Source of the DNA: Escherichia phage PC3
Length of the DNA stretch: 64,000 bases
Direction: 5' to 3' (one strand)
Sequence record: ON184125
Position 1 is the stretch's first letter. Each line of letters opens with the position of its first letter. The notes under the pieces are model-generated. The model was not told the origin of the DNA and did not search any database. It saw only the letters and a program-made list of their open reading frames with translations. Positions 1 through 37,057 of this stretch are shown piece by piece. The translations under genes were made by a program, and so were the position numbers.

Positions 1-2
1 TC

Positions 3-2558
3 GCTCTCAATACTCCACCAACAATCGTGGACGTGTATGCTGATGGGAAACGTCTTTCGGAATCCAAATATTCACTAGATGGGAATGTAATCACTTTCAG
101 TCCTTCTTTGCCACCCAACACAGAACTCCAGGTGATTGAATATACTCCTATTCAATTGGGTAATGGCGGTGGTTCTAGTTCTTCTACGATTACTTGGGTC
201 TATAATGGGGGTTCAGCGATTGGCGGTGAAACCGAAATCACGTTGGACGTCGTTGTTGACGATGTTCCGGCCATTGATATAAACGGAAGTCGCCAGTATA
301 AAAATCTGGGATTCACATTCGATCCATTAACCAGTAAAATCACTCTTGCGCAAGAACTGGAACCAGAGGATGAAGTTGTTGTAATTATCAATGGAACACC
401 AAACATCTATAATCAAATTGATTATACTTTGCGGGAAGTGGCTCGTGTAACCAATGTTAAAGATACAGAGGTCGTTTATTTTAGTGTTGGTGCTGCGTTA
501 AGTGGGTATAAAGTTATTTATGACAAGGAGACGCAAAGGGCTTATCCCTTGCCTGCTGATATTGCCCCAGGTACTACTGCTATCAGTCTTAGTCCTTCCG
601 CTGTACTTGTGCATTCAGCGGGTTCTGTAGATCTCGGGGAATTGGCCGTATCTCGTGAGGAATACGTTACATTGTCTGGGTCATTTGATACCGGTGTAAC
701 AGTTAATACCAAGAATGAATTAGTTGTCTTTACAGATGGGAAGTATCGCTGGGATGGGGAATTGCCTAAAGAGGTTTCTGCTGGCTCAACCCCAGGGAGT
801 GCTGGTGGTACTGGTGCAGGAAAATGGTTAAGTGTTGGTGATGTAAGTTTAAGAAGTGACCTGGCTGATGATGACGGAGTTGATTTAGTTAACGGAGCAG
901 TCAAGGATAAAGATTTTGAGCTTTACAAAAGGCAATCAATTGCAAAAAATAGATTTAATTTCGCTTTTGGGAATAAATACTCAAGAAGCTTTAACAATAA
1001 TTTGCGCTTACAGTTGCAAACTTATGTGGAGAATGTATTTAACTTTGCACCAAAAGCGGTGTCACTTCCAAGTGGGCGGGTGGTATGTATCTACACAGTG
1101 AAGGATGGTGCTAATATTGACCCAGGACAGGACGGCACACCTATGCACATTGATTACCTAATATCTGATGATAACGGTGTGAACTGGACCACTGGAACTG
1201 TTGTTAACAAAGGGCCAGGATATGCCACTTCTGAAACGGTACTATTCCTAAATAATCTTGATGGGTATTTGTATTGTTTCTTTACATCAATGAAGGGGAT
1301 TACGGGGTGGGGGCATGCACAACAAGGAACTAACCCTGACACAACATCAACTATTGAATATGTCATATCAAAGGATGGTGGCAATACATGGAGCACCCCT
1401 GTTGATATTACGCCATTGGTTAAACCATCTGGTGCTTACTTCTCATCAATTGCACCTACACAAGTCGGGTACATAAATGGCAAGCCTGCAATTCCTTATT
1501 ATTATTTAACTCAACTATCTACCGGAATAGTTGAGGGGTATATCACAGTTGATGATAGCGGTAACTACACCTACGGTGAAGATGTCAGGAAAGACACGGA
1601 TACCGATACTCTCGGTACATCTGGCGGTGAAATTGGTTTCGGAAATTTTTATGACGGAACACCGTTTGCCATTGAGCGCGCAGCAGATACGACCACTAAG
1701 CCTTACAAAATAGCCATTCAAAAGCTATTGATGCAAGATTCTAGTGGAAAGTGGGTTGTAAAAGGACAGTTCCCTACCACTAACTGTATGGCGTCGTTCT
1801 TACGCGTTGGCCCTGATTATGGTTTTGATAAGGATTATCTCTTTGTTATCGCACCTGTTGGTCAATCAGGTAATTACGAAGGACGTGCAAACATTAGAGT
1901 ATTCGACTGCTCTGACGATTTTAGCAATCCTATTGATCGCGGCATGATAACAGACACAAATGCTTTGGAGGCAGGTTACAGTTCAACCGTGCTTCTATCT
2001 TCTGGTTCATTTATGAGTATGTGGAACGGTAGACAGTGGACGATCAGCAATTCAATTTACACTATTAACAGGCTTGCGGGTAACGTGATTATCCCTGTCC
2101 CGTTTTGCGGCACTATTAAAATTGTTGACATTAGAAAGACTTTTGCACCCGATTTAAGAATCAACGAGCGAGTGATTGGTCTTGCTGACGGCAAAGAATA
2201 TACATGGAACGGTTCATCATTTGTGCTTGGTATTTCGTCACCAACGAAAACGCTAACAACTGAAACAACTACATTAGATGCCAACTCTTGCGACGTATTT
2301 TATCTCGACGCTGGAAGTAATGGATCAGTGATAACGTCAATCACTGGTGGATATATCGGACAAAGGATATCAATACTTCCGTTATCCGGCAACACTGTTG
2401 TGACGCTTTCAAAACAAGCGTCCGGCGTCTCTGTCACCGACAGAATTATGTATAATACAGAAACCGGGAAGACAAAATACAAGACAAACGGGGAGATTGT
2501 AGAGTTAATAAAAACGAACTACGGATGGTATTTAAACAAATCAGCAAATGCATCATAA
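3..2558 (+). CDS. Tailspike protein 1 (5' partial; BNR/Asp-box sialidase-like domain)
   Basis: Open frame runs off the window start. Carries the ~110-aa module shared with the next tailspikes (VTNVKD...SAGSVDLGELAVSREEYV...NTKNELVVFTDGKYRWDG) and two Asp-box motifs (SDDNGVNW, SKDGGNTW). Confidence 0.75.
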   Translation, partial: ALNTPPTIVDVYADGKRLSESKYSLDGNVITFSPSLPPNTELQVIEYTPIQLGNGGGSSSSTITWVYNGGSAIGGETEITLDVVVDDVPAIDINGSRQYKNLGFTFDPLTSKITLAQELEPEDEVVVIINGTPNIYNQIDYTLREVARVTNVKDTEVVYFSVGAALSGYKVIYDKETQRAYPLPADIAPGTTAISLSPSAVLVHSAGSVDLGELAVSREEYVTLSGSFDTGVTVNTKNELVVFTDGKYRWDGELPKEVSAGSTPGSAGGTGAGKWLSVGDVSLRSDLADDDGVDLVNGAVKDKDFELYKRQSIAKNRFNFAFGNKYSRSFNNNLRLQLQTYVENVFNFAPKAVSLPSGRVVCIYTVKDGANIDPGQDGTPMHIDYLISDDNGVNWTTGTVVNKGPGYATSETVLFLNNLDGYLYCFFTSMKGITGWGHAQQGTNPDTTSTIEYVISKDGGNTWSTPVDITPLVKPSGAYFSSIAPTQVGYINGKPAIPYYYLTQLSTGIVEGYITVDDSGNYTYGEDVRKDTDTDTLGTSGGEIGFGNFYDGTPFAIERAADTTTKPYKIAIQKLLMQDSSGKWVVKGQFPTTNCMASFLRVGPDYGFDKDYLFVIAPVGQSGNYEGRANIRVFDCSDDFSNPIDRGMITDTNALEAGYSSTVLLSSGSFMSMWNGRQWTISNSIYTINRLAGNVIIPVPFCGTIKIVDIRKTFAPDLRINERVIGLADGKEYTWNGSSFVLGISSPTKTLTTETTTLDANSCDVFYLDAGSNGSVITSITGGYIGQRISILPLSGNTVVTLSKQASGVSVTDRIMYNTETGKTKYKTNGEIVELIKTNYGWYLNKSANAS

Positions 2559-2564
2559 CAATAA

Positions 2565-2589
2565 ACCCCGCTTCGGCGGGGTTCTTATT
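2565..2589 (+). terminator. Rho-independent terminator after TSP1
   Basis: ccccgc-ttcg-gcgggg stem-loop followed by TTCTTATT. Confidence 0.6.
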
Positions 2590-2620
2590 ATAACTTTGTT
2601 CATAAATTTATTAGTTCAGA

Positions 2621-2631
2621 CTAAATACCCC
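2621..2631 (+). promoter_or_regulatory. Putative late promoter (CTAAATAcccc)
   Basis: Motif ~27 nt upstream of the TSP2 ATG; recurs before late genes. Confidence 0.45.
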
Positions 2632-2657
2632 ATATTGGTCATCTTTGGGGTATTATC

Positions 2658-5207
2658 ATGATTTCTCAATTCAATCAACCACGCGGCTCCACTTCCATAG
2701 AAGTTAACAAACAATCTATCGCTCGAAATTTCGGTGTCAAAGAAGACGAAGTCATTTATTTCACTGCTGGTATTGATCTCAGTGGATTTAAAGTAATTTA
2801 TGATGAGTCTACCCAACGGGCTTATTCTCTTCCTTCAGGTATTGTTTCAGGAACGACTGCGATAAGTCTGAACGAACAAGCCATCCTCACTCATTCCGCT
2901 GGTTCTGTTGACCTTGGGGAATTAGCAGTAAGCCGCGAAGAGTATGTAACCTTACCTGGTTCATTTGATACCGGTGTAACTGTTAATACTAAGAATGAAT
3001 TAGTTGTATTTACTGATGGTAAGTACCGTTGGGATGGGGCATTACCTAAAGTAGTTCCTGCTGGCACAGACCCTACTCTTCCAGGGAGTGGTTATATTAG
3101 GTGCTCCAATCAGTTCACAAGCACACAGACCCGTGAGGCGTTGCGCCGTAGCTATGCAACAGCAGGCTATAATCTAGTAGATGGTAGCTTTGAGTCGGGC
3201 GGTACACTAGTGAACGCCAACGATGTGCTACTACAAGAACGCACTGGTAAGGCGTTCTCTGGTCCTGCTGGTATAGTTGTCGCTGGGACTAACCCGATAA
3301 CTGGTGGTTACAAAGTTGCTGGAATATACAAACATTTCTCCTCTTTTTACGAGATGATTGCGTCCACGGAGGCAGAGTTACCTGTAGATTCAGTATGCTC
3401 AACCGGCGGTACAATGTGGGTCAGGTCTGCTTCCCAGCCAGCATTAACATCATTTACCCCTATAAGTGCGATTTGCGGGGATGATTTCGGCATAACCGCT
3501 GGAGAGTCTGTCTCTGGCCAGACTATATCTGAATTCCTAACTGTAGCTTACACATCAGGGTGCCGTGGGTACTTCAAGTCAGTCGGTGAAGTTACTGTAA
3601 CCAGCAATATAGAACTATTGTCGATTGATAAAAACTTAGTTGTTGATTGGACTGGTATAAAGTTGTTCGGGGCATCTGATGGGGTGGAAATGCACTTGTC
3701 ATCAACCGAGATTCGGTCTTCACTTCTAGCTGATATGGTAAGTGGCTCCACAGTTGTGCAGGTGGATGGGGCTGTAGAAGGAGATTTGATTTATATAGAG
3801 GACAACAAGACGTATGAGACTCAGTGGAATTTTAACTCAAGGGAGTTGTTTATTGCAGAGCGTGAATCTGGTTCTAGTATGAAAGTTGATAGGCCAGCGC
3901 TATTCAATCATTTAGTAGCAAACAACGTTAAGGTCAACAGGTACAAACCGGTAAGGTTGATTTTCAATAACTTCAAGATGGAGCACTTCAACAATCGTGA
4001 TAACTCATCTTTTGTTAATATAGGCTCCGCATCATTCGGGGTTTCATCTTCATGGTTTCGTGGTTTTTATATGCCAGTCTTTTCTGGTGACGTGGAAACC
4101 AGTGGTGGTTCTTCGTACTTATTGATAGCCTGCTATATGCCAAGAATTGGCAATGTAGTTGCTAATAGGTGTCAGTATCCTATCAGCCCTGCGGCGGGTA
4201 CTTACGATACAGTTATTGATAGCATCACAGCATCATTCTGTCGACATGCTGCCTCCCCAACAACATGGTTCAACAAGTTCGAGGTTAAAAAGTGCTTCGG
4301 TTATAATAACTTCGCCACGATGGACTCGCACGCTGGTTTTGATGCTAAATGGCGTAACGTATTTGCCACCGAAGAATATGATATGCCAAATATAAGATGT
4401 CTTGGTGGTGAGCTGACAGATATCAATATAGTTGCCAGTTTGGGCACAACCCCAGCAGAAGACCCTCAGATAGGTATCGTCACATTTACTGGTGATGCTT
4501 CTATGCACCGAGACTGGATCGCTACTAATGTTGCTCTAAATTATAAAAACCGGACGGATGATATTTTCGCATTACCGTGGCAGGCTGATAATGTCTATTA
4601 CGAAAATATTAACTGCATGGGTGGTTTTATTAGATGTGTAAACACAGCATCAAAAATAAAAACAGTAACATTAACAAACATCAATGCCTGCGTGAGACTG
4701 GTAGGTGACTGCGGAAATCTGAAAACATTAATAAACAACAGGGTAATTCCAGATGATAGTCTCTACATGTATGAGAATGCACCGAACGGGAAGAAAACTA
4801 CATTATGGGAAGTTAACTGTGGGCATACTTCGGGGGCTTCTGCTAACAAAGTTTTAAAGATTTTTGATAACTATGGAACATTAGAATCGCAAAACCTACT
4901 AGTAAAAATTAAGTCGTGTTCTTCATATAATAACGGAGGATCCGTTGCTTATATTGAGAAGACGTACCTAGTAAATCATAAGCTCAGCGCGAATTCTTCC
5001 GCGTCGATATCAGGACCTGTGAATGAAACTCGCATAAACGGCGTGACAGATTCGGACATATCACTCAATGTAACATTAACTAATTCTGCGGGATACACAC
5101 AGTCACCAGATATAAACGCGCATTTCTTTGAGCTAACTATAGCTACAACCACAAGTAGACCGAATAACGTATTCGGTATAACTGTAGAGATATCAAAACT
5201 CAATTGA
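2658..5207 (+). CDS. Tailspike protein 2
   Basis: 849-aa ORF; the conserved module lies at residues ~15-130 and is ~90% identical at DNA level to the TSP1 copy; CTAAATA motif 27 nt upstream. Confidence 0.7.
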   Translation: MISQFNQPRGSTSIEVNKQSIARNFGVKEDEVIYFTAGIDLSGFKVIYDESTQRAYSLPSGIVSGTTAISLNEQAILTHSAGSVDLGELAVSREEYVTLPGSFDTGVTVNTKNELVVFTDGKYRWDGALPKVVPAGTDPTLPGSGYIRCSNQFTSTQTREALRRSYATAGYNLVDGSFESGGTLVNANDVLLQERTGKAFSGPAGIVVAGTNPITGGYKVAGIYKHFSSFYEMIASTEAELPVDSVCSTGGTMWVRSASQPALTSFTPISAICGDDFGITAGESVSGQTISEFLTVAYTSGCRGYFKSVGEVTVTSNIELLSIDKNLVVDWTGIKLFGASDGVEMHLSSTEIRSSLLADMVSGSTVVQVDGAVEGDLIYIEDNKTYETQWNFNSRELFIAERESGSSMKVDRPALFNHLVANNVKVNRYKPVRLIFNNFKMEHFNNRDNSSFVNIGSASFGVSSSWFRGFYMPVFSGDVETSGGSSYLLIACYMPRIGNVVANRCQYPISPAAGTYDTVIDSITASFCRHAASPTTWFNKFEVKKCFGYNNFATMDSHAGFDAKWRNVFATEEYDMPNIRCLGGELTDINIVASLGTTPAEDPQIGIVTFTGDASMHRDWIATNVALNYKNRTDDIFALPWQADNVYYENINCMGGFIRCVNTASKIKTVTLTNINACVRLVGDCGNLKTLINNRVIPDDSLYMYENAPNGKKTTLWEVNCGHTSGASANKVLKIFDNYGTLESQNLLVKIKSCSSYNNGGSVAYIEKTYLVNHKLSANSSASISGPVNETRINGVTDSDISLNVTLTNSAGYTQSPDINAHFFELTIATTTSRPNNVFGITVEISKLN

Positions 5208-5226
5208 CACACCACAAATAAAAACT

Positions 5227-5255
5227 AGCCCTGCTTTGGCGGGGCTCTTTTTGTT
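5227..5255 (+). terminator. Rho-independent terminator after TSP2
   Basis: agccctgc-tttg-gcggggct hairpin plus CTTTTTG. Confidence 0.55.
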
Positions 5256-5395
5256 GTACCACAAACAAACCATTATGTAGACTATTTCAGTCAATCCTGA
5301 CTTAACTAACCTGAGAAATCCCCTATGGTAAATGAACCAGATAACGTAACTCTAGCCAGACTCGAAGAGAGACTGAGAAACATTTTTGAAAACCA

Positions 5396-5423
5396 AAACC
5401 CCGCTTCGGCGGGGTTCTTATTA
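5396..5423 (+). terminator. Terminator hairpin (duplicate of 2565..2589)
   Basis: Same ccccgcttcggcggggttcttatta sequence. Confidence 0.55.
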
Positions 5424-5454
5424 TATCCATGTTCATAAATTTTATTAGTTCAGG

Positions 5455-5465
5455 CTAAATACCCC
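5455..5465 (+). promoter_or_regulatory. Putative late promoter (CTAAATAcccc)
   Basis: Identical copy upstream of TSP3. Confidence 0.45.
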
Positions 5466-5497
5466 ATATTGGCAAATCCTCTATGGGGTATCTTCAA

Positions 5498-7906
5498 ATG
5501 ACCAGAAACGTCGAGAGCATCTTTGGAGCGGTCGTAACAGCTCCGCACCAGATTCCATACACTTACACAGCAACGGGCGGAGAGAAGTTTATCTCCCTCC
5601 CTTTCTACCCTGTCACTGGTATAGTCACAATCAACGGTGGTATGCAAGTTCCGTTAGACAACTTTGAAATCGATGGAAATACGTTGAATCTCGGACGCGC
5701 ATTATCCAAAGGTGACGTTGTGTTCTGTCTGTTTGACAAGATTCTGTCTCCAGAAGATTATAAAACCGGGGTTCGAATCTATAAGTTTCAGGCTATAGGA
5801 GGTGAAACCGAGTTCACTCCTGATTACACATCTTATGGAGTCCAATCTCTTTATATCGGTGGTGAGTACAAAACACCCGAAATTGAATATTCCTATGACA
5901 GCACGACAGGGAAAGTGACTTTACAAACTGCGCTGACTGCAGGCGTTTGGGTAGTCGCTGAAATGTCTGTTAAACAACCGAATATCAGTCCGTTGTTTGA
6001 CCGAAGTATTCAAGAAATCGCTCGTGCTACTAACGTCAAGGATAGTGAAGTAATCCTCAGCACGGATACTACTCAGTCCCTCAATGGTAAGAAGGTTGTT
6101 TATTCTGTTAGTGAGCAGAAGGCATATGGGTTGCCTACATTGCCTACTAACGTATATATTTCTTCCGTTAATGGTGACCAACTAACATACAATCCTGGTG
6201 GGATTGTTGTTGACCTGCTCCCTGCACCCAATGATGTAACTCCAGTGGAGAATGAGTTGCAGGTATATAAAACGGCTATGGTTACTGATGGGGGAACATT
6301 AGTAAATTCTGGCTTATCTGGTGTTTCTTCTGCAATTAAGCGAACCATTGATAGCCATTTTAAAGACTACTATAACGTTAAAGATTTTGGTGCTGTTGGT
6401 GACGGAGCTACTGATGATACGGTAGCCATAAAAGCAGCTATAGCTTATGCTGGCACCACAAAAGGCGTGGTTTATTTCCCGGATGGTAACTATAAAATAA
6501 GCAGTACTCTTGCTCTACCATCGAATGTATCAGTAATAGGGAGAAGTCGTGAATCAGTTATTATAACGAAAACGACATCCACCACCGTTACAGTTCTGGT
6601 GACAGCGCCTGCACTATCTGGAGGGTATACCGGAACCCTGCCTACAGATATGAATGCGGTTATTTGTTTAGGGGATTCTAGTAGTTCAAGATGGTCCGGT
6701 GTCATCACAGGGGTTACTCTGTATGGGACAAAAACTACAACGGAAAACCACGCGGTAGAATTTGGTATCGTAAATGCAGGCGTGGTATCCGACGCCACGA
6801 TAGAAGACGTCTATATTTACGATTGCAAGTATGGGCTAATTCTCCCTGTTGTATTTGCGTCGCGAGTAGGAAACAACCGCGTTACCGCATGTCTCGGTGG
6901 GGTATTTATAAACAACGGCACTTCATGCGTAATATCTACTAACTATAGTAATAGTTGCCGTGATTATGGGCATTGCTATCGGGATCTTAAATACTCTGTT
7001 ATAGAGGCTAATGCCTGTGATCACACTAACAGGAACGACTATTATCCGGACAGGACAAGAGTGTGTTATGGCTATATATTACAGAACCTGCTAGGGGTAA
7101 CGGTAACTGGGAATGGTCAAGAAGGCACTCTGGGTATTAACTGGAGATTGGATAATTTCGACCATAGCTCATTCACCAATAACACCAGTATTAGACTTGG
7201 TTCTGATTACACAGGCCCGTCTAACATATCATGGCTAGAATTAAATGGAGTGGCGCGCAACAGCATCATTGAGAACAATGTATCTTATGAGTACAACTCT
7301 AATGGGATGTTGTTTGGTGGGGCCGTAGCTGGGCAACACCATAATATTTACATCTCCGATATTACGTTTTTTAACGCAATATTGCGTAACAACATTGTAA
7401 GGTCTACACGAAATGGGGTTCCGGTGGAGGCTGGTTGGCTCAACAATGTTACCAGAACGGTGGCGAATTCATCCGCCAAAATCAGGCCAGACCGTACTTT
7501 CTTAGCGAATGACCCCGGTTCGCCTGAAATTACAGTTCAATCAGGCACCAATGCGGTGATATCATACGGCGAGTATACCGTACATAACATAAATTATGTC
7601 GGAGATTTTGCTCATATATTCGGTGTGTTTGATGTGACAATTGAATGGAGTTCCGGCACCAGTCAGTTCATATCTGTGACAGGATTTCCTGTCGCGCGGG
7701 ATTACGCATACATAGCAGTAACAGGGGTGAACAACGGGGACATCGGTTTTACCTCTGGAAATATTCCAGCCAGCTTTCGAATGAACATCGGGAACACTGG
7801 AGGAGCGTTCTTTACTGAAGGTGAAAAAACGCTTCGCATTGATGCAGTTGTGTCCGGTAAACGTTTGTATATTAGCTACGACGGGTGGTATCGGGTTAGC
7901 CCTTAA
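5498..7906 (+). CDS. Tailspike protein 3 (pectate-lyase-like right-handed beta-helix)
   Basis: Motif NVKDFGAVGDGATDDTVAIKAAIAYAG...VVYFPDGNYKISS typical of beta-helix glycanases; divergent copy of the shared module; start chosen by alignment with the TSP2 leader (alternative ATG 5483). Confidence 0.7.
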   Translation: MTRNVESIFGAVVTAPHQIPYTYTATGGEKFISLPFYPVTGIVTINGGMQVPLDNFEIDGNTLNLGRALSKGDVVFCLFDKILSPEDYKTGVRIYKFQAIGGETEFTPDYTSYGVQSLYIGGEYKTPEIEYSYDSTTGKVTLQTALTAGVWVVAEMSVKQPNISPLFDRSIQEIARATNVKDSEVILSTDTTQSLNGKKVVYSVSEQKAYGLPTLPTNVYISSVNGDQLTYNPGGIVVDLLPAPNDVTPVENELQVYKTAMVTDGGTLVNSGLSGVSSAIKRTIDSHFKDYYNVKDFGAVGDGATDDTVAIKAAIAYAGTTKGVVYFPDGNYKISSTLALPSNVSVIGRSRESVIITKTTSTTVTVLVTAPALSGGYTGTLPTDMNAVICLGDSSSSRWSGVITGVTLYGTKTTTENHAVEFGIVNAGVVSDATIEDVYIYDCKYGLILPVVFASRVGNNRVTACLGGVFINNGTSCVISTNYSNSCRDYGHCYRDLKYSVIEANACDHTNRNDYYPDRTRVCYGYILQNLLGVTVTGNGQEGTLGINWRLDNFDHSSFTNNTSIRLGSDYTGPSNISWLELNGVARNSIIENNVSYEYNSNGMLFGGAVAGQHHNIYISDITFFNAILRNNIVRSTRNGVPVEAGWLNNVTRTVANSSAKIRPDRTFLANDPGSPEITVQSGTNAVISYGEYTVHNINYVGDFAHIFGVFDVTIEWSSGTSQFISVTGFPVARDYAYIAVTGVNNGDIGFTSGNIPASFRMNIGNTGGAFFTEGEKTLRIDAVVSGKRLYISYDGWYRVSP

Positions 7907-7915
7907 TTTTATTAT

Positions 7916-7940
7916 AAAGGTCCCATTCGGGACCTTTTCT
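7916..7940 (+). terminator. Rho-independent terminator after TSP3
   Basis: aaaggtccc-attc-gggaccttt plus T-run. Confidence 0.6.
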
Positions 7941-8224
7941 TATATAGAGTTTAGTGTCTGTTGTGTATGCAAGTATTGTTGGTAATAATGGTATTAAAGA
8001 AGCGTATACCTGAGTTCTACAGAAAGGATGGAAAGAATTTGTTACTCCTGCTGGTTCAAGGTGAGGTTTAATACCAGACCGATGTGCATGGTTAGAGGCT
8101 GCTTACCCGTCTAGAATCAATAAACAAATTCTAGGTTGGTTAGCTGAATTGAGAATCGGTAAATAACTTTACTTACATGCCTCCCCACGTTGGGAGGCTT
8201 ACTTAGAAAAACAAAGAGGTCATT

Positions 8225-10450
8225 ATGAACGAAATGTTCTCACAAGGCGGTAAAGGCTCTACTGGTATTCTTACCAATAAGCAAGCCATTGCTCGTAAGT
8301 TTGGTGTTAAGCAAAATGAAGTAGTCTACTTTGCTGTGGGAGTGGACTTGGGTGGCTACAAAGTAATCTATGACAAGTCTACCCAACGTGCTTACTCATT
8401 ACCTGTACTTCCAGTAGGAACCACTGCCGTAAGCCTCAATAAACATGCAGTCCTGGTTCATTCCGCAGGCACAGTTGATTTGGGGGAACTGGCTGCTACA
8501 CGTAGAGAGTTCGTGAACCTATCCGACTCGTTTGCTACTGGTTTAGTTGTGAATACTAGAAATGAATTACTATTTCATAATGGCATAGGTTACACCTACT
8601 TAGGTTCCTTACCTGTAACTATTGTCGCAGGAACTAACCCAGTTGGTAACGCTGACTGGAAGCCGCAGACAGATCCTAATTTACGGGACGTGCGTGCTTT
8701 TGGGGTTGTCGGTGATGGGTCTGATGAGGCATCTAGTTTACAGTTAGCCATTAACTCGGGGAATGTTTTTGTTCCTCCGGGCATGACAATTTCCCATTCA
8801 CAAGTCAACATACCAAAAGGTACGATTTTTACTTTCGGTCACGGTGCTGGGTTGACATCATTGACCGCTAATGCTCTTAATTTCGTCAGCGAGAGCCAAT
8901 TCAGCTTGCTTTCCCCTGCGGCTTCCGGAGCAACGTCCATCACATTAACATCTGAGGTGGCAGGAACTGGGTATACTCGGGCGTTGGTAATACGCACTGA
9001 GGACACAAGTGACGCTTGGTATATTGCCAACGCACAGAATCCGGATGTAACCGGATACCAAGGAGAATCTTTTTTAATATCGTCCATATCAGGTGCTACT
9101 GTAAATTTAGCAACGGCTTTACCGTGGGACCTAACTACCTCCAATTCGGTTATTTATCTTATAAAAGGCAACGCTACTAAGTTCATCGGGGGAATCTTAA
9201 AAAATTCTGCGTCAGGGTCTAGCTACATGTACCAATCTGTGGGGGCTTCGCTTATAGAGTTCCATGGTACTGTTTTTGATTATAATGGAAATGGCGGTTC
9301 AAGGCATGATAACGCGTACGGTGTGGTGTACCACAACACTACCCATACCGGGCGTGTCGGAAATGGTAATATATTTTTTGGTTACGGATCTACAGATTGT
9401 ACTGTTACAGGTACGACCCACATTGGAGGGACCGGTGGGGATGCGCAAATAATATCTTATGCTGGCTGCCGTAACATCCGTACATCCCATAACACCCTAA
9501 AACCTACGGCCAACAACGGAGGTATATATTTTGGTGCAAAATGCTTCGACTGCAACACCCATGCTGATTATATTAAAGGCGGAAAGTATGGGGTTATGGG
9601 GGCATTTGGTGCTCAGTGTATTGTTGTGGACTCGCTGGCGGCAGACGACCAAATATCAGGCGCTATCTTTATGGAGCAATGCCAGAACTTTACCATCACA
9701 AACCCGTCTATTAGATTCGTAAGGACTGGCGCTCAAACAACCGCTGCGATATTAATTAAGGACTGCGATTATGTGACAGTGGATGCAAATGTCCCTGTAA
9801 ATACAGGGGCGAACGGGTATATAGTCAGTATGTATAGCGCTCCTGCATACGCCCTAACAGTTAGAAAAAATATAAACATTACGGTAAAAGGTACTGGCAG
9901 TGTATACCTTACTAGCCCTATGACCAATTTCTCGATTAAAGACTGTTTAACATCCGGCGGTATGACAGTTTACTACGCCAATGGTACGTCTACTTACGGC
10001 AAGGTTACGCGTAATAGTTGCCGGTTTTTAGTAGCTCAAAGTTTCCAATATTGTGACATAGATAGTAACACCATTGCGGGGGATTCTGATTCTGAGGGTA
10101 TACGCCTTGGTGGTAACTGTAGATGGAACAACGTATATAGAAACAAGGTTAGTGGGGTTACTACGGCATTCTTCGTTAACTCAGCACCCGCAAATCTATA
10201 CACAAATGCGTTTCATGATGATAACGTAATAGATTACTCAACAGTAACCACCTTCGTATCATCTCAGACTGGAACCACCACACCAGTTACTGGAGTGTTA
10301 AACCCCGCTCCAGTGAGGAATTTCTTTCTCCCGGCAACAGGTTGGCAGGATAGCCCTACGGTAAAAAGAACTGTTAGTGGCTGGAGGCATAAAGGCACTA
10401 CAACAGGCACAGCGTCTGATTGGTTTACTATCCCCTCGTCAGAAGCGTGA
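8225..10450 (+). CDS. Tailspike protein 4 (beta-helix)
   Basis: Shared module at N-terminus (FGVKQNEVVYF...SAGTVDLGELA), then VRAFGVVGDGSDEASSLQLAINSG beta-helix signature; SD aaagagg upstream. Confidence 0.75.
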   Translation: MNEMFSQGGKGSTGILTNKQAIARKFGVKQNEVVYFAVGVDLGGYKVIYDKSTQRAYSLPVLPVGTTAVSLNKHAVLVHSAGTVDLGELAATRREFVNLSDSFATGLVVNTRNELLFHNGIGYTYLGSLPVTIVAGTNPVGNADWKPQTDPNLRDVRAFGVVGDGSDEASSLQLAINSGNVFVPPGMTISHSQVNIPKGTIFTFGHGAGLTSLTANALNFVSESQFSLLSPAASGATSITLTSEVAGTGYTRALVIRTEDTSDAWYIANAQNPDVTGYQGESFLISSISGATVNLATALPWDLTTSNSVIYLIKGNATKFIGGILKNSASGSSYMYQSVGASLIEFHGTVFDYNGNGGSRHDNAYGVVYHNTTHTGRVGNGNIFFGYGSTDCTVTGTTHIGGTGGDAQIISYAGCRNIRTSHNTLKPTANNGGIYFGAKCFDCNTHADYIKGGKYGVMGAFGAQCIVVDSLAADDQISGAIFMEQCQNFTITNPSIRFVRTGAQTTAAILIKDCDYVTVDANVPVNTGANGYIVSMYSAPAYALTVRKNINITVKGTGSVYLTSPMTNFSIKDCLTSGGMTVYYANGTSTYGKVTRNSCRFLVAQSFQYCDIDSNTIAGDSDSEGIRLGGNCRWNNVYRNKVSGVTTAFFVNSAPANLYTNAFHDDNVIDYSTVTTFVSSQTGTTTPVTGVLNPAPVRNFFLPATGWQDSPTVKRTVSGWRHKGTTTGTASDWFTIPSSEA

Positions 10451-10467
10451 CTTATAGCTGTAAAACT

Positions 10468-10492
10468 AAGGCCCCAAATGGGGCCTTTTCTT
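10468..10492 (+). terminator. Rho-independent terminator after TSP4
   Basis: aaggcccc-aaat-ggggcctt plus T-run; same downstream tail as the 7916 terminator. Confidence 0.6.
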
Positions 10493-10860
10493 ATATAGAA
10501 TTTACTGTTTGCATTACCCTAACCGATACTGCTGTTAAGGTTATTACTTGCCCAGAGATATTAAACATACCCAATTGAATACCTTCTACCATGAAAGGGT
10601 CTGTCGAACCAAGTTTGTAAGTGGCTAATACGTTATCTCTGTTGGCAATGTCTGTACCCTGTACCTTAACACTAGCATCTGAACCTACTACTGTGGTTCC
10701 ATTGGTTCGCCTTGTTTGCGTTCTCCATTCCCTGGCTGTACCAGCACCCCTGCAATAGTTCCTGAAGAATGCGGAGGTCTTGAATCCATGACCATAACCA
10801 CAGAAAGATAATCAAAGCCCCTTCGGGCTTATTTCTTTCTATTCCTCGGTTGGTTGTATA

Positions 10861-10868
10861 CTAAATAT
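10861..10868 (+). promoter_or_regulatory. Putative late promoter (CTAAATAT)
   Basis: ~35 nt upstream of the 1612-aa gene. Confidence 0.4.
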
Positions 10869-10901
10869 CTCTATAATGGCACCTATCGATGGAGCATCAA
10901 A

Positions 10902-13900
10902 ATGCAAGAAATGAACCTCAACCGCCGCCCATATTGGGATGACTGGAATCCAGAGAAGCGTTTTTCGCGCATCCTATTCCGTCCGGCACCTATCAAAGTT
11001 CAGACGCGTGAACTGAACCAGATGCAGACCATCTTCCAGGATCAACTGGAGAAACTTGGCAACCATCTGTTCAAAGACGGTTCAATGGTTATCCCCGGCG
11101 GCCTAACGATCACCAACACTGCTGTGTCCATGAAGTTCACTCTGGCTGGTGGTAGTGAGTTCACTGATCTGGAAGGTATCTCCGAACTCTATGTTCTGGG
11201 CAAGGACAACAATGCGAAAGCACGCGTCCTGTCCTTGGAACGTTATCCAGCTGAGCCAGATACAATGTATGCCATCTTAGAGATGACTGAAAGTGGTAGT
11301 TCAGACGGTTTCGAAGCTGGCGACAATCTATATTTCAACACCTATGACGTGAACGATAACTTCATCCGTGTCGGCTATGGTGTGGCCGATACTGTTGGTG
11401 GTTCGATTGTCGCTCGCATGACAAAGGGTGTTTATTTCGTTCGTGGTATGTTCCTGGATGTTGAACCAGCCACTCTGATCGTAGACAACGCATCGAACTC
11501 TACATCTCACCGCATTGGCTTCAAAGTTACAGAAACAATCGTGACCGAAGCAGAAGATGAAAGTCTGTTCTCCAATGCTCAGGGTACTCCGAACTCTAAA
11601 GCCCCTGGTGCGCATCGCCTGCGCGTCGACCTCGTGTTGTCTCGCTACGGTTATGATGAAGAAGTGGCCGACTTCGTCGAACTGGCGAAGGTGAAAGACG
11701 GTCGCATTCAGTCCATGGTCACCCAGTCAACGTACAACATCCTCGAAGACGCCATGGCTCAGCGTACCTATGAGACCAATGGTGACTACAACGTCTCTAC
11801 TCACCAGATCGACCTGCGTGAACATCTGAAACAGAACAACAACGGCGGCGTTTACACTCCGGCTGAAGGCGGTGATGAAAGCAAATTCGTGGCGGTTATG
11901 AAGCCAGGCATTTCCTACGTTCGTGGTCGTCGTATCGAAAACCTCGGCGAAGAGCTGGTCATAATTGACAAAGCCCGTGACACTGATATCCTGAACAACA
12001 ACCCTGTGGCTGTTTCGACTGGAAACTATCTGGTGTCCAAGAACTCCAAAGGGGTTCCGGTTGTCTCCCGCACAATCCGCTACAAGTTCCTGAACGCATC
12101 CAGCGATGTGCAGGCCACCGCCCTGTTGATTTCGGCAGAGCGCTCTGGTACTGAATTCCGTCTGTATATGCGCGACCTTGTTGTGACTGGGGACATGGGT
12201 ACGGTGACCAAAGTTGCATATGAAGAAAGCGGTACAACGATGTTCTCCTGCGAACTGGAGTCCAATCAGTTCAGTCAGAGTTCAGCAATTGACCTGATCT
12301 TCCCTCTGCCTGTATTTGGTGTGAAGACTCTAGCACCTACAGGCACCATCGACATCAACTACACCGTCCTGCGGTCAAACAAGATCACGTTGAACGCCGC
12401 TGGTGCAGGATCAATCTCTGCTCCTCTGGGTTACAGCTTCAGCCCTGAGTTTTCACTGTACTCCGCAGCGAAAGCAGACGGCACTGCAGCTCAGTTTGAT
12501 ATCTCTTCGGGACTGTCCCTGGCTGGTACTCCGGTTGGTTCAGCACTGCAGATTTCCCTGGGCGCGGGGTACGCCAACCAGTCTATCAACCTGTTGGCAT
12601 TGATGGTCCGCACCACAGCGACGATCAAGACCAAGACTGTTACTGAAGTCACCGAGACTGTGACGTTTACTGCGGCGGCCAGCGCACAACTTGGGAACCA
12701 TGATGGTTACAAGCTGATCAGTGTGAAGAACGCAAATGGCGCTGACGTCACTTCTAACTTCACTCTGGACGGCGGCCAGCGTGATGCTGCATACTACCTT
12801 TCTAACCTCATATCGTCCACAGGAGCCATTTCAGGGACGTTCACGGTGGTGTATCAGTATTTCGCTCACAGCTCTGGTGATTTCTTCACAGCGGACTCCT
12901 ATTCGTCCATCAACTACCCAGACATCCCGAACTATGTTTCATCCAGTTCTGGTACTGTGTATGGGTTGGCCGACAGTCTGGACTTCCGTCCCAAGATCAC
13001 CAGCGGAGCGTCTGACACGGACATGGTTCGCCCGAACACCGCGATCATCCTAGATGCAGAGTACTATCTACCTCGTATTGATGCTGTGTATCTGGCCGAC
13101 AACGGTGTGTTCAACGTTGCGCGTGGTGTGAGTTCCAACAACCTGGCTTCCCCTGCGATCCCAGACAACAGCATGCGCCTGTATGAATTGATGATCCCAC
13201 CATACACGGCCAACATTGACGACATCCAGATTCGTACTATCGACAACCGCCGCTACACGATGCGCGATATCGGTAAACTGGAGACCCGTATCTCCAATGT
13301 CGAATATTACACCTCACTGTCTCAGCTGGAATCCTCGGCGATGTCACAACAGGTGTTCGATCCAATTACTGGCAACCCGCGCTTCAAGAACGGTATCGCA
13401 GCAGACCCGTTCAAAGATTTCCGTCTGATCGACGATTTGTCTGCAGACTGGGTGGGTTCAATCGACACTGACAATGGTCGTCTGCGTCCGTTTGTTCAGC
13501 AGAACGCGATTGACCTGACGCCAGTCGGTTGGAACAACGTTCAGGATGGCATGGTTGTATGCAACTACACCCGTGAGATCTCTGTCCGACAGGACTATGC
13601 AACCACGACCATCAACGTGAACCCGTATGCGGTGTTCAACTGGGAAGGATTCCTGAAACTGAACCCAACTACTGATTACTGGTTTGAGAACTACTATGTT
13701 ACTCCACGTGTGATCAACGAAACGATCAACACCCGTGGTGCGATCAAAGAAGGTTCCGTGTATGGCACATGGCGTACTGTGTCCGTGTCTGAGCGTGTGT
13801 GGGAACCGCATGGTGCAGGTGGTGTATGGTGGGGCTATCGCTACCGCACGACTGTGTCTACCCGTGACGTCACCACGTACACGTACACCGACAAGACGAC

Positions 13901-15740
13901 CACTACCCTGACTGGCGAGCAGATCGTTGAAACGCAGGTAATCCCATACATGCGCAAAACGAACATCAACTTCGAAGCCACAGGTCTGCGTCCGTTCACT
14001 CGTGTGTATCCGTTCTTCTCTGGACGTGATGTGAGCGCGTACTGTACCCCAAACGGTGGTGTACTGGGCGGTGCGTTGAACACTGATGCCAACGGCAACA
14101 TCAAAGGTGTGTTTGCGGTTCCTCAGAACGAGACTATCAAGTTTAACACGGGTGACAACGTCTTCCGTCTGACTGACAGTCCTGTGGACAGTAAGTCTGC
14201 TGATGATACCCTGACCAATGCTGAGGCTGTTCATAAGTCCTTCGGCAAGAAACAGGGCATCCAGAAGACTTATGTCAACACCCGCGTCCTGGGATACACT
14301 GCAACCAAGTCTACGGAAAACAAAACAGAGACGGTTGAAGTCGCGAAGTGGAAAGATCCTATCGCCCAGTCCTTTATGGTTGCCACCAATATCGGCGGCG
14401 AATACATCGAAGGGATTGAAGTCTTCTTCTCTACCAAGTCCCGTGATATCCCGATCACTCTGGAAATCCGCGAGATGAGCAATGGTCTGCCAGCAACGAC
14501 TGTCGTCACTCGTAAGACTCTGAATCCATCAGAAGTTTCCACCTCCACAGACTCTTCTGTGCCGACGATGTTCAAGTTTGATTATCCTGTGTATCTGCAG
14601 GCGCAAACCGAGTTCGCGATTGTTCTCTTGGCCAACACTCAGGACTACAACGCATACATCGCAGAGATGGGTAAGAAGAACTTGCTGACCAACGAGTTCA
14701 TTGCCAAACAGCCGTACACTGGCGTGTTCTTCACATCTTCAAATGGTACGACCTGGACTCCAAACCAGACTGCCGATATGAAGTTCCGTGTATATCGCTG
14801 TAACTTCTCCGCTGGTTCAAACATCGTGACCTTCGATGCTAAAGTCGGTCCGAAGATCCGCCCTCTGGGTCTGAACACCGTGAAATGTGTCAACGGTTCT
14901 TCAACTGTTACTGTGTACGCTCCGGGGCATGGCCTGACTGCGGGCGAAAGTGTTACTCTGTCTGGGTTGACGGGTGGTTGCGGTTTCACTCCTGAGCAAC
15001 TGAACGCTCAACACACTGTGACTGATGCGACGTTCACGACGTTCAAATTCGTTCTGAGTTCCAACGCCGACTCCGACGGTCAGATTGGTGGTGAAGCGGC
15101 TTCTTTCCTAGGCAACTACTTGGTAGACATGTTCTACGCAAGCGTCACCAATTCAGCCCTAGAAGGATCTATGTTGAAACTGGAATACCGCTATCGCGAT
15201 GCGACCTCCAACTCATTCTCTGATTGGGTTGAGTTCGAATCCGATACGGACGTGTCTCTGCCGACGGAAGGTATCTATCGTCAGGTGGGCGACTTCCAGG
15301 TTCGTGCAACCATGACTCGCAACGAGAGTAATGTCTACACGGCTCCAATGATCGACGGTGATGATTTCACTATCATCTTCAACACCTACGGTGTGGATCC
15401 GTTTGAAGATGTGTTCAGCTATGTGACCAAGGATATCGGATTCGATAACCCTTGCACCACTCTGAAGCAATACTTCGGCGCGATGCTGCCTTCTCAGTCT
15501 TCAATGACTGTGCAAGTTAAACTGCTGCGCGCAGGCCAGGAGATGGATGATGTGGCATGGGAAACTGTGACACCGACATCCCCTCTGGTCAATGACGGTT
15601 CTACATTCTTCGAATATGAGTATGACAAGACTGTAGACAGCACCAATCCTTTCGTTGGCCTGAAGATCCGCCTGCTGGTCAGAGGCAACCGCACAGCACC
15701 GCCGTCATTCAAAGATTTCCGTTTGATTGCTCTGGCATAA
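10902..15740 (+). CDS. Large virion structural protein (1612 aa; putative tail fibre/baseplate-associated)
   Basis: Long ORF between the tailspikes and neck genes; CTAAATA motif at 10861 and GGAG 7 nt before the ATG; function inferred from position only. Confidence 0.5.
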   Translation: MQEMNLNRRPYWDDWNPEKRFSRILFRPAPIKVQTRELNQMQTIFQDQLEKLGNHLFKDGSMVIPGGLTITNTAVSMKFTLAGGSEFTDLEGISELYVLGKDNNAKARVLSLERYPAEPDTMYAILEMTESGSSDGFEAGDNLYFNTYDVNDNFIRVGYGVADTVGGSIVARMTKGVYFVRGMFLDVEPATLIVDNASNSTSHRIGFKVTETIVTEAEDESLFSNAQGTPNSKAPGAHRLRVDLVLSRYGYDEEVADFVELAKVKDGRIQSMVTQSTYNILEDAMAQRTYETNGDYNVSTHQIDLREHLKQNNNGGVYTPAEGGDESKFVAVMKPGISYVRGRRIENLGEELVIIDKARDTDILNNNPVAVSTGNYLVSKNSKGVPVVSRTIRYKFLNASSDVQATALLISAERSGTEFRLYMRDLVVTGDMGTVTKVAYEESGTTMFSCELESNQFSQSSAIDLIFPLPVFGVKTLAPTGTIDINYTVLRSNKITLNAAGAGSISAPLGYSFSPEFSLYSAAKADGTAAQFDISSGLSLAGTPVGSALQISLGAGYANQSINLLALMVRTTATIKTKTVTEVTETVTFTAAASAQLGNHDGYKLISVKNANGADVTSNFTLDGGQRDAAYYLSNLISSTGAISGTFTVVYQYFAHSSGDFFTADSYSSINYPDIPNYVSSSSGTVYGLADSLDFRPKITSGASDTDMVRPNTAIILDAEYYLPRIDAVYLADNGVFNVARGVSSNNLASPAIPDNSMRLYELMIPPYTANIDDIQIRTIDNRRYTMRDIGKLETRISNVEYYTSLSQLESSAMSQQVFDPITGNPRFKNGIAADPFKDFRLIDDLSADWVGSIDTDNGRLRPFVQQNAIDLTPVGWNNVQDGMVVCNYTREISVRQDYATTTINVNPYAVFNWEGFLKLNPTTDYWFENYYVTPRVINETINTRGAIKEGSVYGTWRTVSVSERVWEPHGAGGVWWGYRYRTTVSTRDVTTYTYTDKTTTTLTGEQIVETQVIPYMRKTNINFEATGLRPFTRVYPFFSGRDVSAYCTPNGGVLGGALNTDANGNIKGVFAVPQNETIKFNTGDNVFRLTDSPVDSKSADDTLTNAEAVHKSFGKKQGIQKTYVNTRVLGYTATKSTENKTETVEVAKWKDPIAQSFMVATNIGGEYIEGIEVFFSTKSRDIPITLEIREMSNGLPATTVVTRKTLNPSEVSTSTDSSVPTMFKFDYPVYLQAQTEFAIVLLANTQDYNAYIAEMGKKNLLTNEFIAKQPYTGVFFTSSNGTTWTPNQTADMKFRVYRCNFSAGSNIVTFDAKVGPKIRPLGLNTVKCVNGSSTVTVYAPGHGLTAGESVTLSGLTGGCGFTPEQLNAQHTVTDATFTTFKFVLSSNADSDGQIGGEAASFLGNYLVDMFYASVTNSALEGSMLKLEYRYRDATSNSFSDWVEFESDTDVSLPTEGIYRQVGDFQVRATMTRNESNVYTAPMIDGDDFTIIFNTYGVDPFEDVFSYVTKDIGFDNPCTTLKQYFGAMLPSQSSMTVQVKLLRAGQEMDDVAWETVTPTSPLVNDGSTFFEYEYDKTVDSTNPFVGLKIRLLVRGNRTAPPSFKDFRLIALA

Positions 15741-36293: not shown

Positions 36294-36304
36294 CTAAATA
36301 CCCC
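36294..36304 (+). promoter_or_regulatory. Putative late promoter (CTAAATAcccc)
   Basis: Upstream of the 36329 gene. Confidence 0.45.
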
Positions 36305-36328
36305 CATCATCCATGGGGGTATTTTCTT

Positions 36329-37057
36329 ATGAACGCACAGATCTATGACGCCCTATCACAGGGCAACGCCTTTACCAATCCTCTCCCGTCCCTCAGCAGC
36401 GCCTCACAGGGGTTAATCACCAGCGGTAAGGCGACTACAGAGTCACTGGCTAACACCGGAAATGCGCAGATTCAGGAAGCGCTGACGGCAGGTGGGTTGA
36501 CTACAGCCAAACTCAACGAATCTACAGCAATGTTCAACTCAGCCAACAACAGCATCACTACTTTGAACAACTATGGCGACCAGTCAGTGAAAGAGGCATA
36601 TTCCCGCATCGGTACATCTGTGTCGTATAAGTCCGCCCTGAAGTCTATAGGTCGAGAACCGAACAACTGTGATCTGATCAATAATGCATTTGGGGTTATT
36701 CAGAACCTCGGCAAACAGTGGATCAACACCATGCAAAGTGTTCTCACAACTATCACAAACAAGATGAATGAGCTGGCTGAGTTGGTAGCTCAGGGCGTCG
36801 GTGCTGGTCTTGATGCTATTCAGGCACTGGCTGCTGAAGTTACTCAGGCCATCGACACTGCTGTCGCATCAGTAGCCTCTATTGCTCAGGACATCACGAA
36901 CGGTATTGCAGCAGAGTTAGCCCATATCCAAGACATGGTTGGTAAGTGTCTTAACTTCTCTTTTGCCAACGTGATCTCAGAGTGGGCGAAAGATATCTGC
37001 GCCGGAGGTGTCATCAACAGCATTGGTTCCGATAATCTGAAGAACGCACTGAAGTAA
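36329..37057 (+). CDS. Hypothetical late protein (242 aa, Ala/Ser/Thr-rich, helical)
   Basis: CTAAATA motif at 36294 followed by a hairpin and the ATG. Confidence 0.5.
   Translation: MNAQIYDALSQGNAFTNPLPSLSSASQGLITSGKATTESLANTGNAQIQEALTAGGLTTAKLNESTAMFNSANNSITTLNNYGDQSVKEAYSRIGTSVSYKSALKSIGREPNNCDLINNAFGVIQNLGKQWINTMQSVLTTITNKMNELAELVAQGVGAGLDAIQALAAEVTQAIDTAVASVASIAQDITNGIAAELAHIQDMVGKCLNFSFANVISEWAKDICAGGVINSIGSDNLKNALK

Follow-up and report, generated by a model that had tools for sequence, protein, structure and literature searches.

A CBA120-like tailspike gene cluster in Escherichia phages PC3 and PH4, with a tsp4-type tract in the head of tsp3

We analysed the tailspike genes at the start of a 64,000-nucleotide (nt) stretch of Escherichia phage PC3 (record ON184125), which is referred to below as the window. 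Judged by sequence comparison, bases 1-10450 are a tailspike cluster, tsp4-tsp3-tsp2-tsp1, of a type known for the Ackermannviridae. The findings are best explained jointly by a cluster organized like that of phage CBA120 in which a tract of 89% identity between tsp4 and tsp3 is the footprint of recombination or gene conversion at the head junction; we put the probability of this explanation at about 0.85. The donor and direction of the event are what we infer from sequence, and the donor may have been either the phage's own tsp4 or a co-infecting relative. By megablast, bases 1-10800 of Escherichia phage PH4 (ON184126.1) and the first 10.8 kb of the window are 100% identical. PH4 is a member of the Ackermannviridae, Aglimvirinae, and of Agtrevirus type, and the PH4 and PC3 genomes are reported to be 99.99% identical (Sørensen 2023, PMC10791037). 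We use the name PH4 for the locus in what follows. Phage vB_EcoM-RPN242 (RPN242) is 97.6% identical to the same 10.8 kb (megablast).

The tailspike cluster and its head domains

Four large open reading frames, all on one strand, occupy 3(27)-2558, 2658-5207, 5483-7906 and 8225-10450. They lie in the order tsp4-tsp3-tsp2-tsp1 between baseplate-wedge genes upstream and the VriC gene downstream, and the layout of the cluster is identical in RPN242, AV101, YX22, CECAV050 and Se-G. The identities of the genes are seen directly in the matches of their N-termini to the CBA120 structures of TSP4-N, TSP3, TSP2 and TSP1, with E values from 1e-194 down to 1e-52. A first-pass annotation of this DNA had recognized four tandem tailspike genes, as these matches bear out, and had numbered them in the reverse of the CBA120 order; its TSP1, TSP2, TSP3 and TSP4 are tsp4, tsp3, tsp2 and tsp1, respectively, in the naming used here. 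The genes and their parts, with lengths in amino acids (aa), are as follows.

1-2558, plus strand: tsp4, the 3' 2558 nt of a 3162-nt gene, the remaining 604 nt being at the far end of the circular record
426-800, plus strand: D1-D2 (TD1-TD2) head of tsp4, D1 at about 426-659 and D2 at about 660-800
2658-5207, plus strand: tsp3, 849 aa; D1 at 2658-2945, D2 at 2946-3086, a linker domain of ~70 aa at about 3105-3314, receptor-binding domain at 3315-5204
5483-7906, plus strand: tsp2, 807 aa as annotated; XD2-XD3 at about 5498-5990, a single divergent D1 at about 5966-6268, beta-helix from about 6371
8225-10450, plus strand: tsp1, 741 aa; D1 at 8225-8512, D2 at 8513-8689 in a divergent variant (SFATGLVVNTRNELLFHNGIGYTYLG), receptor-binding domain at 8690-10447

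Two gene starts need comment. The tsp4 frame is open up to window base 3, and the GenBank coding sequence runs 155292..2558 on the circular record ON184126, whose origin falls inside tsp4. Because the frame is open to base 3 and the origin cuts the gene, a start at GTG 27 is an artefact; the true ATG lies 604 nt upstream, beyond the origin (ON184126 155292-155895), and the full protein has 1053 aa. In tsp2, a hairpin encloses the annotated ATG at 5483; the alignment to CBA120 TSP2 begins at residue 6, and annotation of the RPN242 gene makes it five codons shorter. ATG 5498 is probably the more likely start.

The full-length tsp4 product consists of an anchor domain, gp10-like XD1-XD2-XD3, a D1-D2 head and a receptor-binding domain. 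Its residues 1-338, of which 1-201 are encoded outside the window, match CBA120 TSP4-N (7rej/7rfo) with E = 1.6e-194 in a PDB sequence search, and its head matches the heads of CBA120 TSP4, TSP1 and TSP3 (5w6h, 4oj5, 6nw9). The head opens the protein directly in both tsp3, where residues 1-143 match CBA120 TSP3 (6nw9/5w6f, E = 2e-73), and tsp1, where residues 1-155 match CBA120 TSP1 (4oj5, E = 1.5e-52). The tsp1 N-terminus also matches 4qnl (E = 9e-53), presumably G7C gp63.1. Residues 6-257 of tsp2 match CBA120 TSP2 (6w4q, chain residues 1-253) with E = 6e-127. The Pfam family PF18668 (Tail_spike_N) covers the D2 part in tsp4 (E = 1.3e-21) and in tsp3; D1 and D2 limits are those of PMC8432352.

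All-against-all BLAST of the four genes finds similarity in the N-terminal head only and none in the C-terminal parts, in agreement with the proposal that no two of the downstream receptor-binding domains are related. The tsp4 and tsp3 heads are 71% identical over 126 aa and 73.7% identical over 339 nt; amino acid identity is 58% for tsp3/tsp1 and 53% for tsp4/tsp1. Similarity between tsp2 and the other heads is limited to 30-44% amino acid identity over the D1 part, with no nucleotide match. The D1-like half of tsp2 is divergent (GKKVVYSVSEQKAYGLP...), and in the alignment tsp2 has no SAGSVDLGELA...KYRWDG half and no D2-type sequence. A module of ~110 aa that had been assigned to all four proteins is thus complete in tsp4, tsp3 and tsp1, and tsp2 has the divergent D1-like half only.

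This is the organization of CBA120, a Kuttervirus (Plattner 2019; Chao 2022, PMC8825819), which likewise has four adjacent tsp genes, a TSP4 with the anchor and XD1-XD3, a TSP2 with XD2-XD3 and a single D1, and TSP1 and TSP3 proteins that open with D1-D2. PH4 differs from CBA120 in belonging to the Aglimvirinae rather than the Cvivirinae and in all four of its receptor-binding domains, none of which has a PDB sequence match past the head.

A tsp4-type tract in the distal D2 of tsp3

Between 678-770 in tsp4 and 2958-3050 in tsp3, 83 of 93 positions are identical (89.2%), far above the flanking 93-nt blocks, which are 63.4% and 67.7% identical in the two upstream blocks and 35.5% in the downstream block. 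The ~90% identity noted for these positions in the first-pass annotation is therefore reproduced. Divergence along the two genes is not uniform: a maximum-chi-square scan delimits a tract with 13 differences in 110 nt inside and 81 in 232 nt outside (Fisher p = 4e-6), and the observed statistic was reached in 4 of 300 codon permutations. Exact runs within the repeat are 20 and 17 nt long. The two copies of the tract are:

676-785, plus strand: tsp4 copy, in distal D2, SFDTGVTVNTKNELVVFTDGKYRWDG plus a few codons
2956-3065, plus strand: tsp3 copy, tsp4-type sequence unlike that of tsp3 orthologs

The pattern extends to synonymous sites. The two proteins have the same 21-aa peptide in the upstream stretch HSAGSVDLGELAVSREEYVTL, where 16 of 22 codons nevertheless show synonymous differences, whereas inside the tract a 26-aa peptide is identical in both genes and 7 of 26 codons differ. 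Because this heterogeneity is at synonymous sites, constraint at the protein level alone cannot explain it. That argues strongly against an account without recombination, in which the tract is the most constrained part of the head and is alike in all paralogs. Such an account draws on the identity of the 26-aa peptide in tsp4 and tsp3 and on the greater conservation of D2 than of D1 between paralogs in every genome examined. However, the tsp3 orthologs of AV101, YX22, CECAV050 and Se-G have quite different peptides and DNA at this position (at most 77% identity), and a block replacement exactly at the tract separates PH4 from RPN242, two phages with about 98% identity elsewhere. We consider it very improbable that the tract arose by constraint without exchange.

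We compared D1-D2 in a codon alignment of each tsp4, tsp3 and tsp1 from PH4, RPN242, AV101, A221, YX22, CECAV050, LHE287 and Se-G, together with the gp63.1-like gene of nithesis, for nine phages in all. D1 of PH4 tsp3 is 96-98% identical at the nucleotide level to its tsp3 orthologs and 64% identical to PH4's own tsp4, and D1 of PH4 tsp4 is 97-99% identical to most tsp4 orthologs. Distal D2 (SFDTG...RWDG, 681-758 / 2961-3038) has different relatives. There, PH4 tsp3 is 91% identical to the tsp4 genes of PH4, RPN242 and LHE287 and 90% identical to that of AV101 (88-91% for the tsp4-type copies as a group), and at most 77% identical to its own orthologs, which carry different peptides at this place. 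The mosaic pattern and the phylogenetic incongruence are seen directly in the alignment: nearest neighbours switch between D1 and distal D2, which indicates recombination. The D2 variant SFDTGVTVNTKNELVVFTDGKYRWDG is attached to at least seven unrelated receptor-binding domains across the tsp4, tsp3 and tsp1 slots, which makes it a free mosaic segment rather than a piece of a receptor-binding cassette. Both GTTAISL and GTTAVSL motifs are present in the PH4 alignment.

Several observations weigh against reading the PH4 tract as a recent exchange between the phage's own genes. The permutation test on PH4 alone is significant, not overwhelming. The PH4 tsp3 tract is equally near (90-91%) to the tsp4 genes of PH4, LHE287 and AV101, and with foreign genes this close the sequences do not establish an intragenomic paralog exchange in PH4. 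Divergence of ~9% is similar to that between orthologs within the genus, so that by sequence the PH4 event is not recent; its tract would be older than that of RPN242, or would have come from elsewhere. In 8 of 8 genomes, paralogs also agree better in D2 than in D1 (0.7-0.87 versus 0.54-0.69), which accounts for part of the contrast between the tract and its flanks. The earlier proposal of recent recombination between paralogs consequently stands as to recombination, on the strength of the switch in neighbours across the nine phages, and not as to an exchange between PH4's own paralogs or its recency. General concerted evolution among paralogs was considered separately and set aside, within-genome pairs being no closer than between-genome pairs in AV101, LHE287, YX22, CECAV050 and Se-G.

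By sequence, the clear recent intragenomic conversion from tsp4 to tsp3 lies in RPN242, not in PH4. RPN242 tsp3 is 97% identical to the phage's own tsp4 over HSAG...KYR, which comprises proximal and distal D2, in a tract of about 135-160 nt at 4389-4530 of the extracted RPN242 locus, corresponding to about 2886-3025 in the window. The maximum-chi-square tract has 6 differences in 160 nt versus 66 in 182 nt, a statistic that none of 300 permutations reached. Four of the five substitutions that distinguish RPN242 tsp4 from PH4 tsp4 are present in RPN242 tsp3, which identifies an RPN242-type tsp4 as the donor. The proximal D2 of PH4 tsp3 keeps tsp3-type sequence where RPN242 is tsp4-type, and it is here that PH4 and RPN242 have their strongest hot spot of substitutions, with 18 in 2901-3000 where the mean per 100 nt is 2.3.

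A cassette import would explain the equal closeness of the PH4 tract to foreign genes. According to this alternative, the donor was not PH4's own tsp4 but a co-infecting Ackermannviridae phage, whose tsp4- or tsp1-type gene supplied PH4 tsp3 by a crossover with its distal D2 and possibly also with a new receptor-binding domain. The tract is as near to tsp4 of LHE287 (91%) and AV101 (90%) as to that of PH4 (91%), and several of its seven differences from PH4 tsp4 are also found in the LHE287 and AV101 genes. Homology to other tsp3 genes stops directly after the tract, at 3064-3073, and receptor-binding modules are known to move among the TSP1, TSP3 and TSP4 slots of Kuttervirus (PMC8432352). 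Against an import, we found no gene outside PH4 and RPN242 that joins the SFDTGVTVNTKNELVVFTDGKYRWDG D2 variant to the tsp3 receptor-binding domain, and the nearest foreign copies of that domain, in Stephanstirmvirinae, begin only at 3312. The presence of the D2 variant on so many different receptor-binding domains indicates that it does not travel with any one of them, and RPN242 demonstrates conversion from the resident tsp4 in this very lineage. We regard an import as possible rather than probable.

Misassembly, with short reads collapsed or swapped between the head repeats of tsp4 and tsp3, is the least likely explanation and scarcely credible: although the repeat is short and a record origin that cuts tsp4 speaks of no manual curation, the exact repeats are far below read lengths, the tract has private substitutions and is not a plain copy of tsp4, the independent assemblies of PH4 and RPN242 both have tsp4-type distal D2 in tsp3, and PH4 and PC3 are reported to be nearly identical.

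Fold and relatives of the receptor-binding domains

Homology to other Ackermannviridae ends shortly after the head, at about 840-866 in tsp4, 3064-3073 in tsp3, 6160-6199 in tsp2 and 8403-8688 in tsp1. Three of the four receptor-binding domains recur in phages of other families at 91-97% nucleotide identity. In 50,697 phage records, the receptor-binding part of tsp2 was seen in no phage other than PH4 and RPN242. Features of the tsp4 and tsp3 domains are:

864-2555, plus strand: receptor-binding part of tsp4, with a predicted propeller core at about 1029-2033 and a C-terminal beta domain at about 2034-2555
3315-5204, plus strand: receptor-binding domain of tsp3, with family-invariant residues Y507 (4176), R529/H530 (4242), H558 (4329) and R580 (4395)

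An AlphaFold2 model of the tsp4 domain from 19 sequences (mean predicted local distance difference test score, pLDDT, 70.8; core >80) is a six-bladed beta-propeller. A Foldseek search of the PDB with this model returned GH33 sialidases as all of its top matches (E about 1e-15, probability 1.0), and the family profile matches sialidases with E = 6e-12. Two Asp-boxes of the canonical form S-x-D-x-G-x-x-W, SDDNGVNW and SKDGGNTW, are encoded at 1164-1187 and 1368-1391 (full-length residues 589 and 657). The Pfam family BNR_2 scores 27.3 bits, under the curated cut-off of 31.4, and precomputed annotation of homologs of the domain includes PF13088. Invariant R, Y, E and D residues are seen in the family alignment. 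The proposed sialidase-like Asp-box domain is thus confirmed at the level of predicted fold as a GH33 sialidase-like propeller. The tsp4 domain resembles GH33 exo-sialidases and phage endosialidase spikes in its predicted propeller, its Asp-boxes and its profile match, but is only 13-20% identical to solved sialidases. Some Kuttervirus spikes annotated as putative exo-alpha-sialidase are 26-30% identical to it.

For tsp2, a pectate-lyase-like beta-helix is confirmed at the sequence level by a match to PF12708 (E = 2.7e-19; 70.3 bits against a cut-off of 27), as the first-pass annotation had proposed for this gene. Its pectate-lyase label for tsp1 finds no Pfam support. The tsp1 receptor-binding domain has no Pfam or PHROG match. 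Its start, DVRAFGVVGDGSDEA...AINSG, is typical of a beta-helix, the alignment of its profile to CBA120 TSP1 and TSP3 reaches no further than the first beta-helix rungs, and PF12708 (E = 0.0033) and PF13229 (E = 0.0037) each match one relative weakly. A beta-helix is probable for tsp1 on this weak evidence.

The tsp3 receptor-binding domain, which the first-pass annotation had left unassigned, itself also has no Pfam or PHROG match. An AlphaFold2 model from an 11-sequence alignment was unusable (pLDDT 44.5), and a PDB profile search with a shallow alignment gave matches to the linker domain only. An exhaustive search found 76 distant relatives, and PF12708 was present in 13 of the 40 scanned. 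The resulting family profile aligns with the K1 lyase of Klebsiella phage NTUH-K2044-K1-1 (7w1c; PMC8822698) across about 195 positions (E = 6e-11) and has matches to about 30 further chains of pectin-lyase fold. In the K1-lyase alignment, tsp3 Y507 pairs with the catalytic Tyr311 and R529/H530 with Arg333/His334; by spacing alone, the invariant H558/R580, 22 residues apart, resemble the lyase's His373/Arg397, 24 apart. The domain is probably a right-handed beta-helix and possibly a polysaccharide lyase of K1-lyase type. The resemblance to the K1 lyase lies in this profile alignment to its beta-helix and in the conserved Tyr and Arg/His pair; PH4 tsp3 itself has no direct match to it. A comparison of the tsp3 and tsp1 receptor-binding families by hhalign was uninformative (5% probability).

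Between the tsp3 head and this domain lies the linker domain (REALRRSYATAGYNLVDGSFESGGTLVNANDVLLQERTGKAFSGPAG..., residues about 150-219), which occurs at 75-89% identity in hundreds of otherwise unrelated tail proteins; 539 database proteins have only the linker in common with tsp3. We considered the linker as a third D2-like repeat but do not claim this, since BLASTP against tsp3's own D2 gives nothing and the sole support is that both align to the same part of PDB 9lna.

The relatives of these domains in other families are close. From about position 815, at the W-LSVGD-SLRSDLA neck, the tsp4 domain is 95.7% identical in nucleotide sequence to part of a gp66-like tail protein gene of nithesis (Gamaleyavirus, Schitoviridae), and it is 83% identical in amino acid sequence to a Sashavirus protein. 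Nearly the whole of tsp1 matches the gp63.1-like spike gene of the same nithesis phage, nucleotide identity being 86% for the head and 97% for the receptor-binding domain; the latter is also 97% identical to that of A221 tsp1. The matching regions are 815-2583 and 8204-10765 in the window and 4264-6097 and 6101-8735 in the extracted nithesis locus. For the tsp3 domain (3312-5244), nucleotide identity is about 91% to the gene of a 668-aa protein that two Stephanstirmvirinae phages carry, AV126 (E. coli) and KKP_3264 (Serratia), at 4001-5933 of their extracted loci. Metagenomic homologs of the tsp4 and tsp1 domains bear T7-tail, P22 head-binding or tail-collar adaptors and not the Ackermannviridae head.

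In G7C-like N4 phages (Schitoviridae, Gamaleyavirus), which carry gp66 and gp63.1, heads of the gp63.1 type are homologous to those of the TSP1 type. Nithesis has the tsp4 domain on its gp66-like protein and a whole tsp1-like gene as its gp63.1-like spike, both at 96-97% nucleotide identity. The G7C-like phages differ in having a two-spike podovirus system in which the two genes are adjacent, whereas the counterparts in PH4 stand at opposite ends of the cluster. That the tsp4 and tsp1 domains are paired in both PH4 and nithesis may reflect co-selection for one host.

Intergenic elements and the exchange of tailspike domains

The spaces between the genes contain repeated elements and predicted hairpins, listed here with the adjoining gene.

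2564-2583, plus strand: terminator-like hairpin after tsp4, within a repeated cassette
2621-2631, plus strand: CTAAATACCCC motif upstream of tsp3, pairing with GGGGTATT just before the ATG
5227-5416, plus strand: region between tsp3 and tsp2, containing two terminator-like hairpins at 5227-5246 and 5397-5416
5455-5465, plus strand: CTAAATACCCC motif upstream of tsp2, pairing with GGGGTAT at 5485-5491
7916-7937, plus strand: terminator-like hairpin after tsp2
10468-10487, plus strand: terminator-like hairpin after tsp1
10902-15740, plus strand: VriC-like gene, 1612 aa, following tsp1

Cassettes consisting of a terminator hairpin and a promoter motif are repeated between the genes at 82-94% identity: 2563-2638 is about 94% identical to 5396-5472, and 7917-7960 is repeated at 10468-10511. 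From their sequence, these cassettes could serve as crossover sites for the exchange of whole genes. A 154-nt segment of the tsp3-tsp2 intergenic region (5245-5398), between the two hairpins, is missing from RPN242. It is 93% identical to DNA downstream of AV101 tsp1 (12584-12736 of the extracted AV101 locus) and looks like a relic of a cluster rearrangement. The PH4 and RPN242 clusters were called identical by Sørensen 2023 (PMC10791037); in our analysis they differ by the conversion tract of about 135-160 nt and by this 154-nt indel.

CTAAATACCCC is a named regulatory motif of the Ackermannviridae (PMC7283392). It occurs exactly four times on the plus strand of the window (in the regions 2621-2657, 5455-5497, 36294-36330 and 39491), compared with a chance expectation of 0.5 when one mismatch is allowed. 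A fifth copy lies outside the window, upstream of tsp4 (5249-5294 of the extracted PH4 locus), and tsp1 is without the motif. In four of the five sites it pairs with GGGGTAT(TT) 6-7 nt before the start codon. The predicted folds have energies of -12 to -21 kcal/mol and z-scores down to -6.9, and the bases that lengthen the stems vary from site to site; the sites look like a conserved 5'-leader hairpin. A scan for sigma-70 promoters was uninformative for PH4, with 18 found and 24.8 expected from shuffled sequence. The window contains no tRNA genes. G+C content rises from ~0.42-0.45 across the tsp cluster to 0.49-0.53 in the VriC-like gene (region about 10500-14000).

How the spikes would be put together can be modelled on CBA120, where ultracentrifugation and structural work on the assembly have been carried out (PMC8825819). 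There, the complex is anchored by TSP4, which binds TSP2 through XD2 and the D1 head of TSP1 through XD3 (PMC8825819; PMC11414711), and TSP3 joins through its head after TSP4:TSP2 has formed, TSP2 having a single D1 head domain (PMC8825819). By analogy, the four trimeric PH4 proteins would assemble into one branched complex in which TSP4 anchors to the baseplate and presents XD2 and XD3 docking surfaces, TSP2 docks on TSP4 via XD2, and XD3 surfaces receive the D1 heads of TSP1 and TSP3. Since D1 has to recognise the partner on which it docks, it would be slot-specific and evolve as an ortholog. Distal D2 and the neck (KYRWDG-LPK-V-AGSTP / W-SVGD-SLRS-LA), common to tsp1, tsp3, tsp4 and tailspikes of unrelated phages, would provide a homologous junction at which one receptor-binding domain can be exchanged for another. 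On this model, the 676-785 / 2956-3065 tract would have arisen when the distal D2 of tsp3 was replaced by tsp4-type sequence through homologous recombination or gene conversion.

The module, the identity patch and the recombination hypothesis are already known from Sørensen et al. (2021, 2023), with PH4 in the dataset. The earlier of these studies defined TSP subtypes, described Kuttervirus receptor-binding modules common to the TSP1, TSP3 and TSP4 slots and proposed a conserved TD1 site, GTTAVSL, as the crossover point (PMC8432352); the later one compared 14 Agtrevirus tsp clusters, including those of PH4, PC3 and RPN242 (PMC10791037). Swapping of tsp genes by experiment and tsp4/tsp5 recombination have also been described (PMC11414711). 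PH4 shares its genus-level group with the Agtrevirus clusters of AV101 and 13 other phages (PMC10791037), and differs from the Kuttervirus hypothesis (PMC8432352) in that the breakpoints lie in D2 and the neck, not at GTTAVSL in D1. Phage tail fibres whose hypervariable receptor-binding segments lie between short conserved DNA motifs that serve as crossover sites are similar in principle, but those fibres are non-enzymatic and have another fold, whereas the PH4 motif is a folded head domain common to paralogs in one genome. What is new here is the map of breakpoints, the difference between PH4 and RPN242, the contrast between a slot-specific D1 and a promiscuous distal D2, the fold proposals for three receptor-binding domains, and the donors in other phage families; no new principle is involved.

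A broader idea, which we hold tentatively, is that the D2 domains of tsp1, tsp3 and tsp4 are kept alike by repeated intragenomic conversion, and that this would maintain a landing pad for domain hopping and for exchange across families (Schitoviridae, Stephanstirmvirinae). The evidence for it is the two nested tsp4-to-tsp3 tracts in the PH4/RPN242 lineage. If the idea is true, the co-occurrence in PH4 and nithesis of the tsp1 domain and the sialidase-like tsp4 domain would point to two domains that have to act together on one host surface. Ackermannviridae tailspike clusters set which O- and K-antigens a phage can use and are engineered for diagnostics and therapy, and the natural crossover positions in distal D2 and the neck help in the design of chimeric spikes that still assemble.

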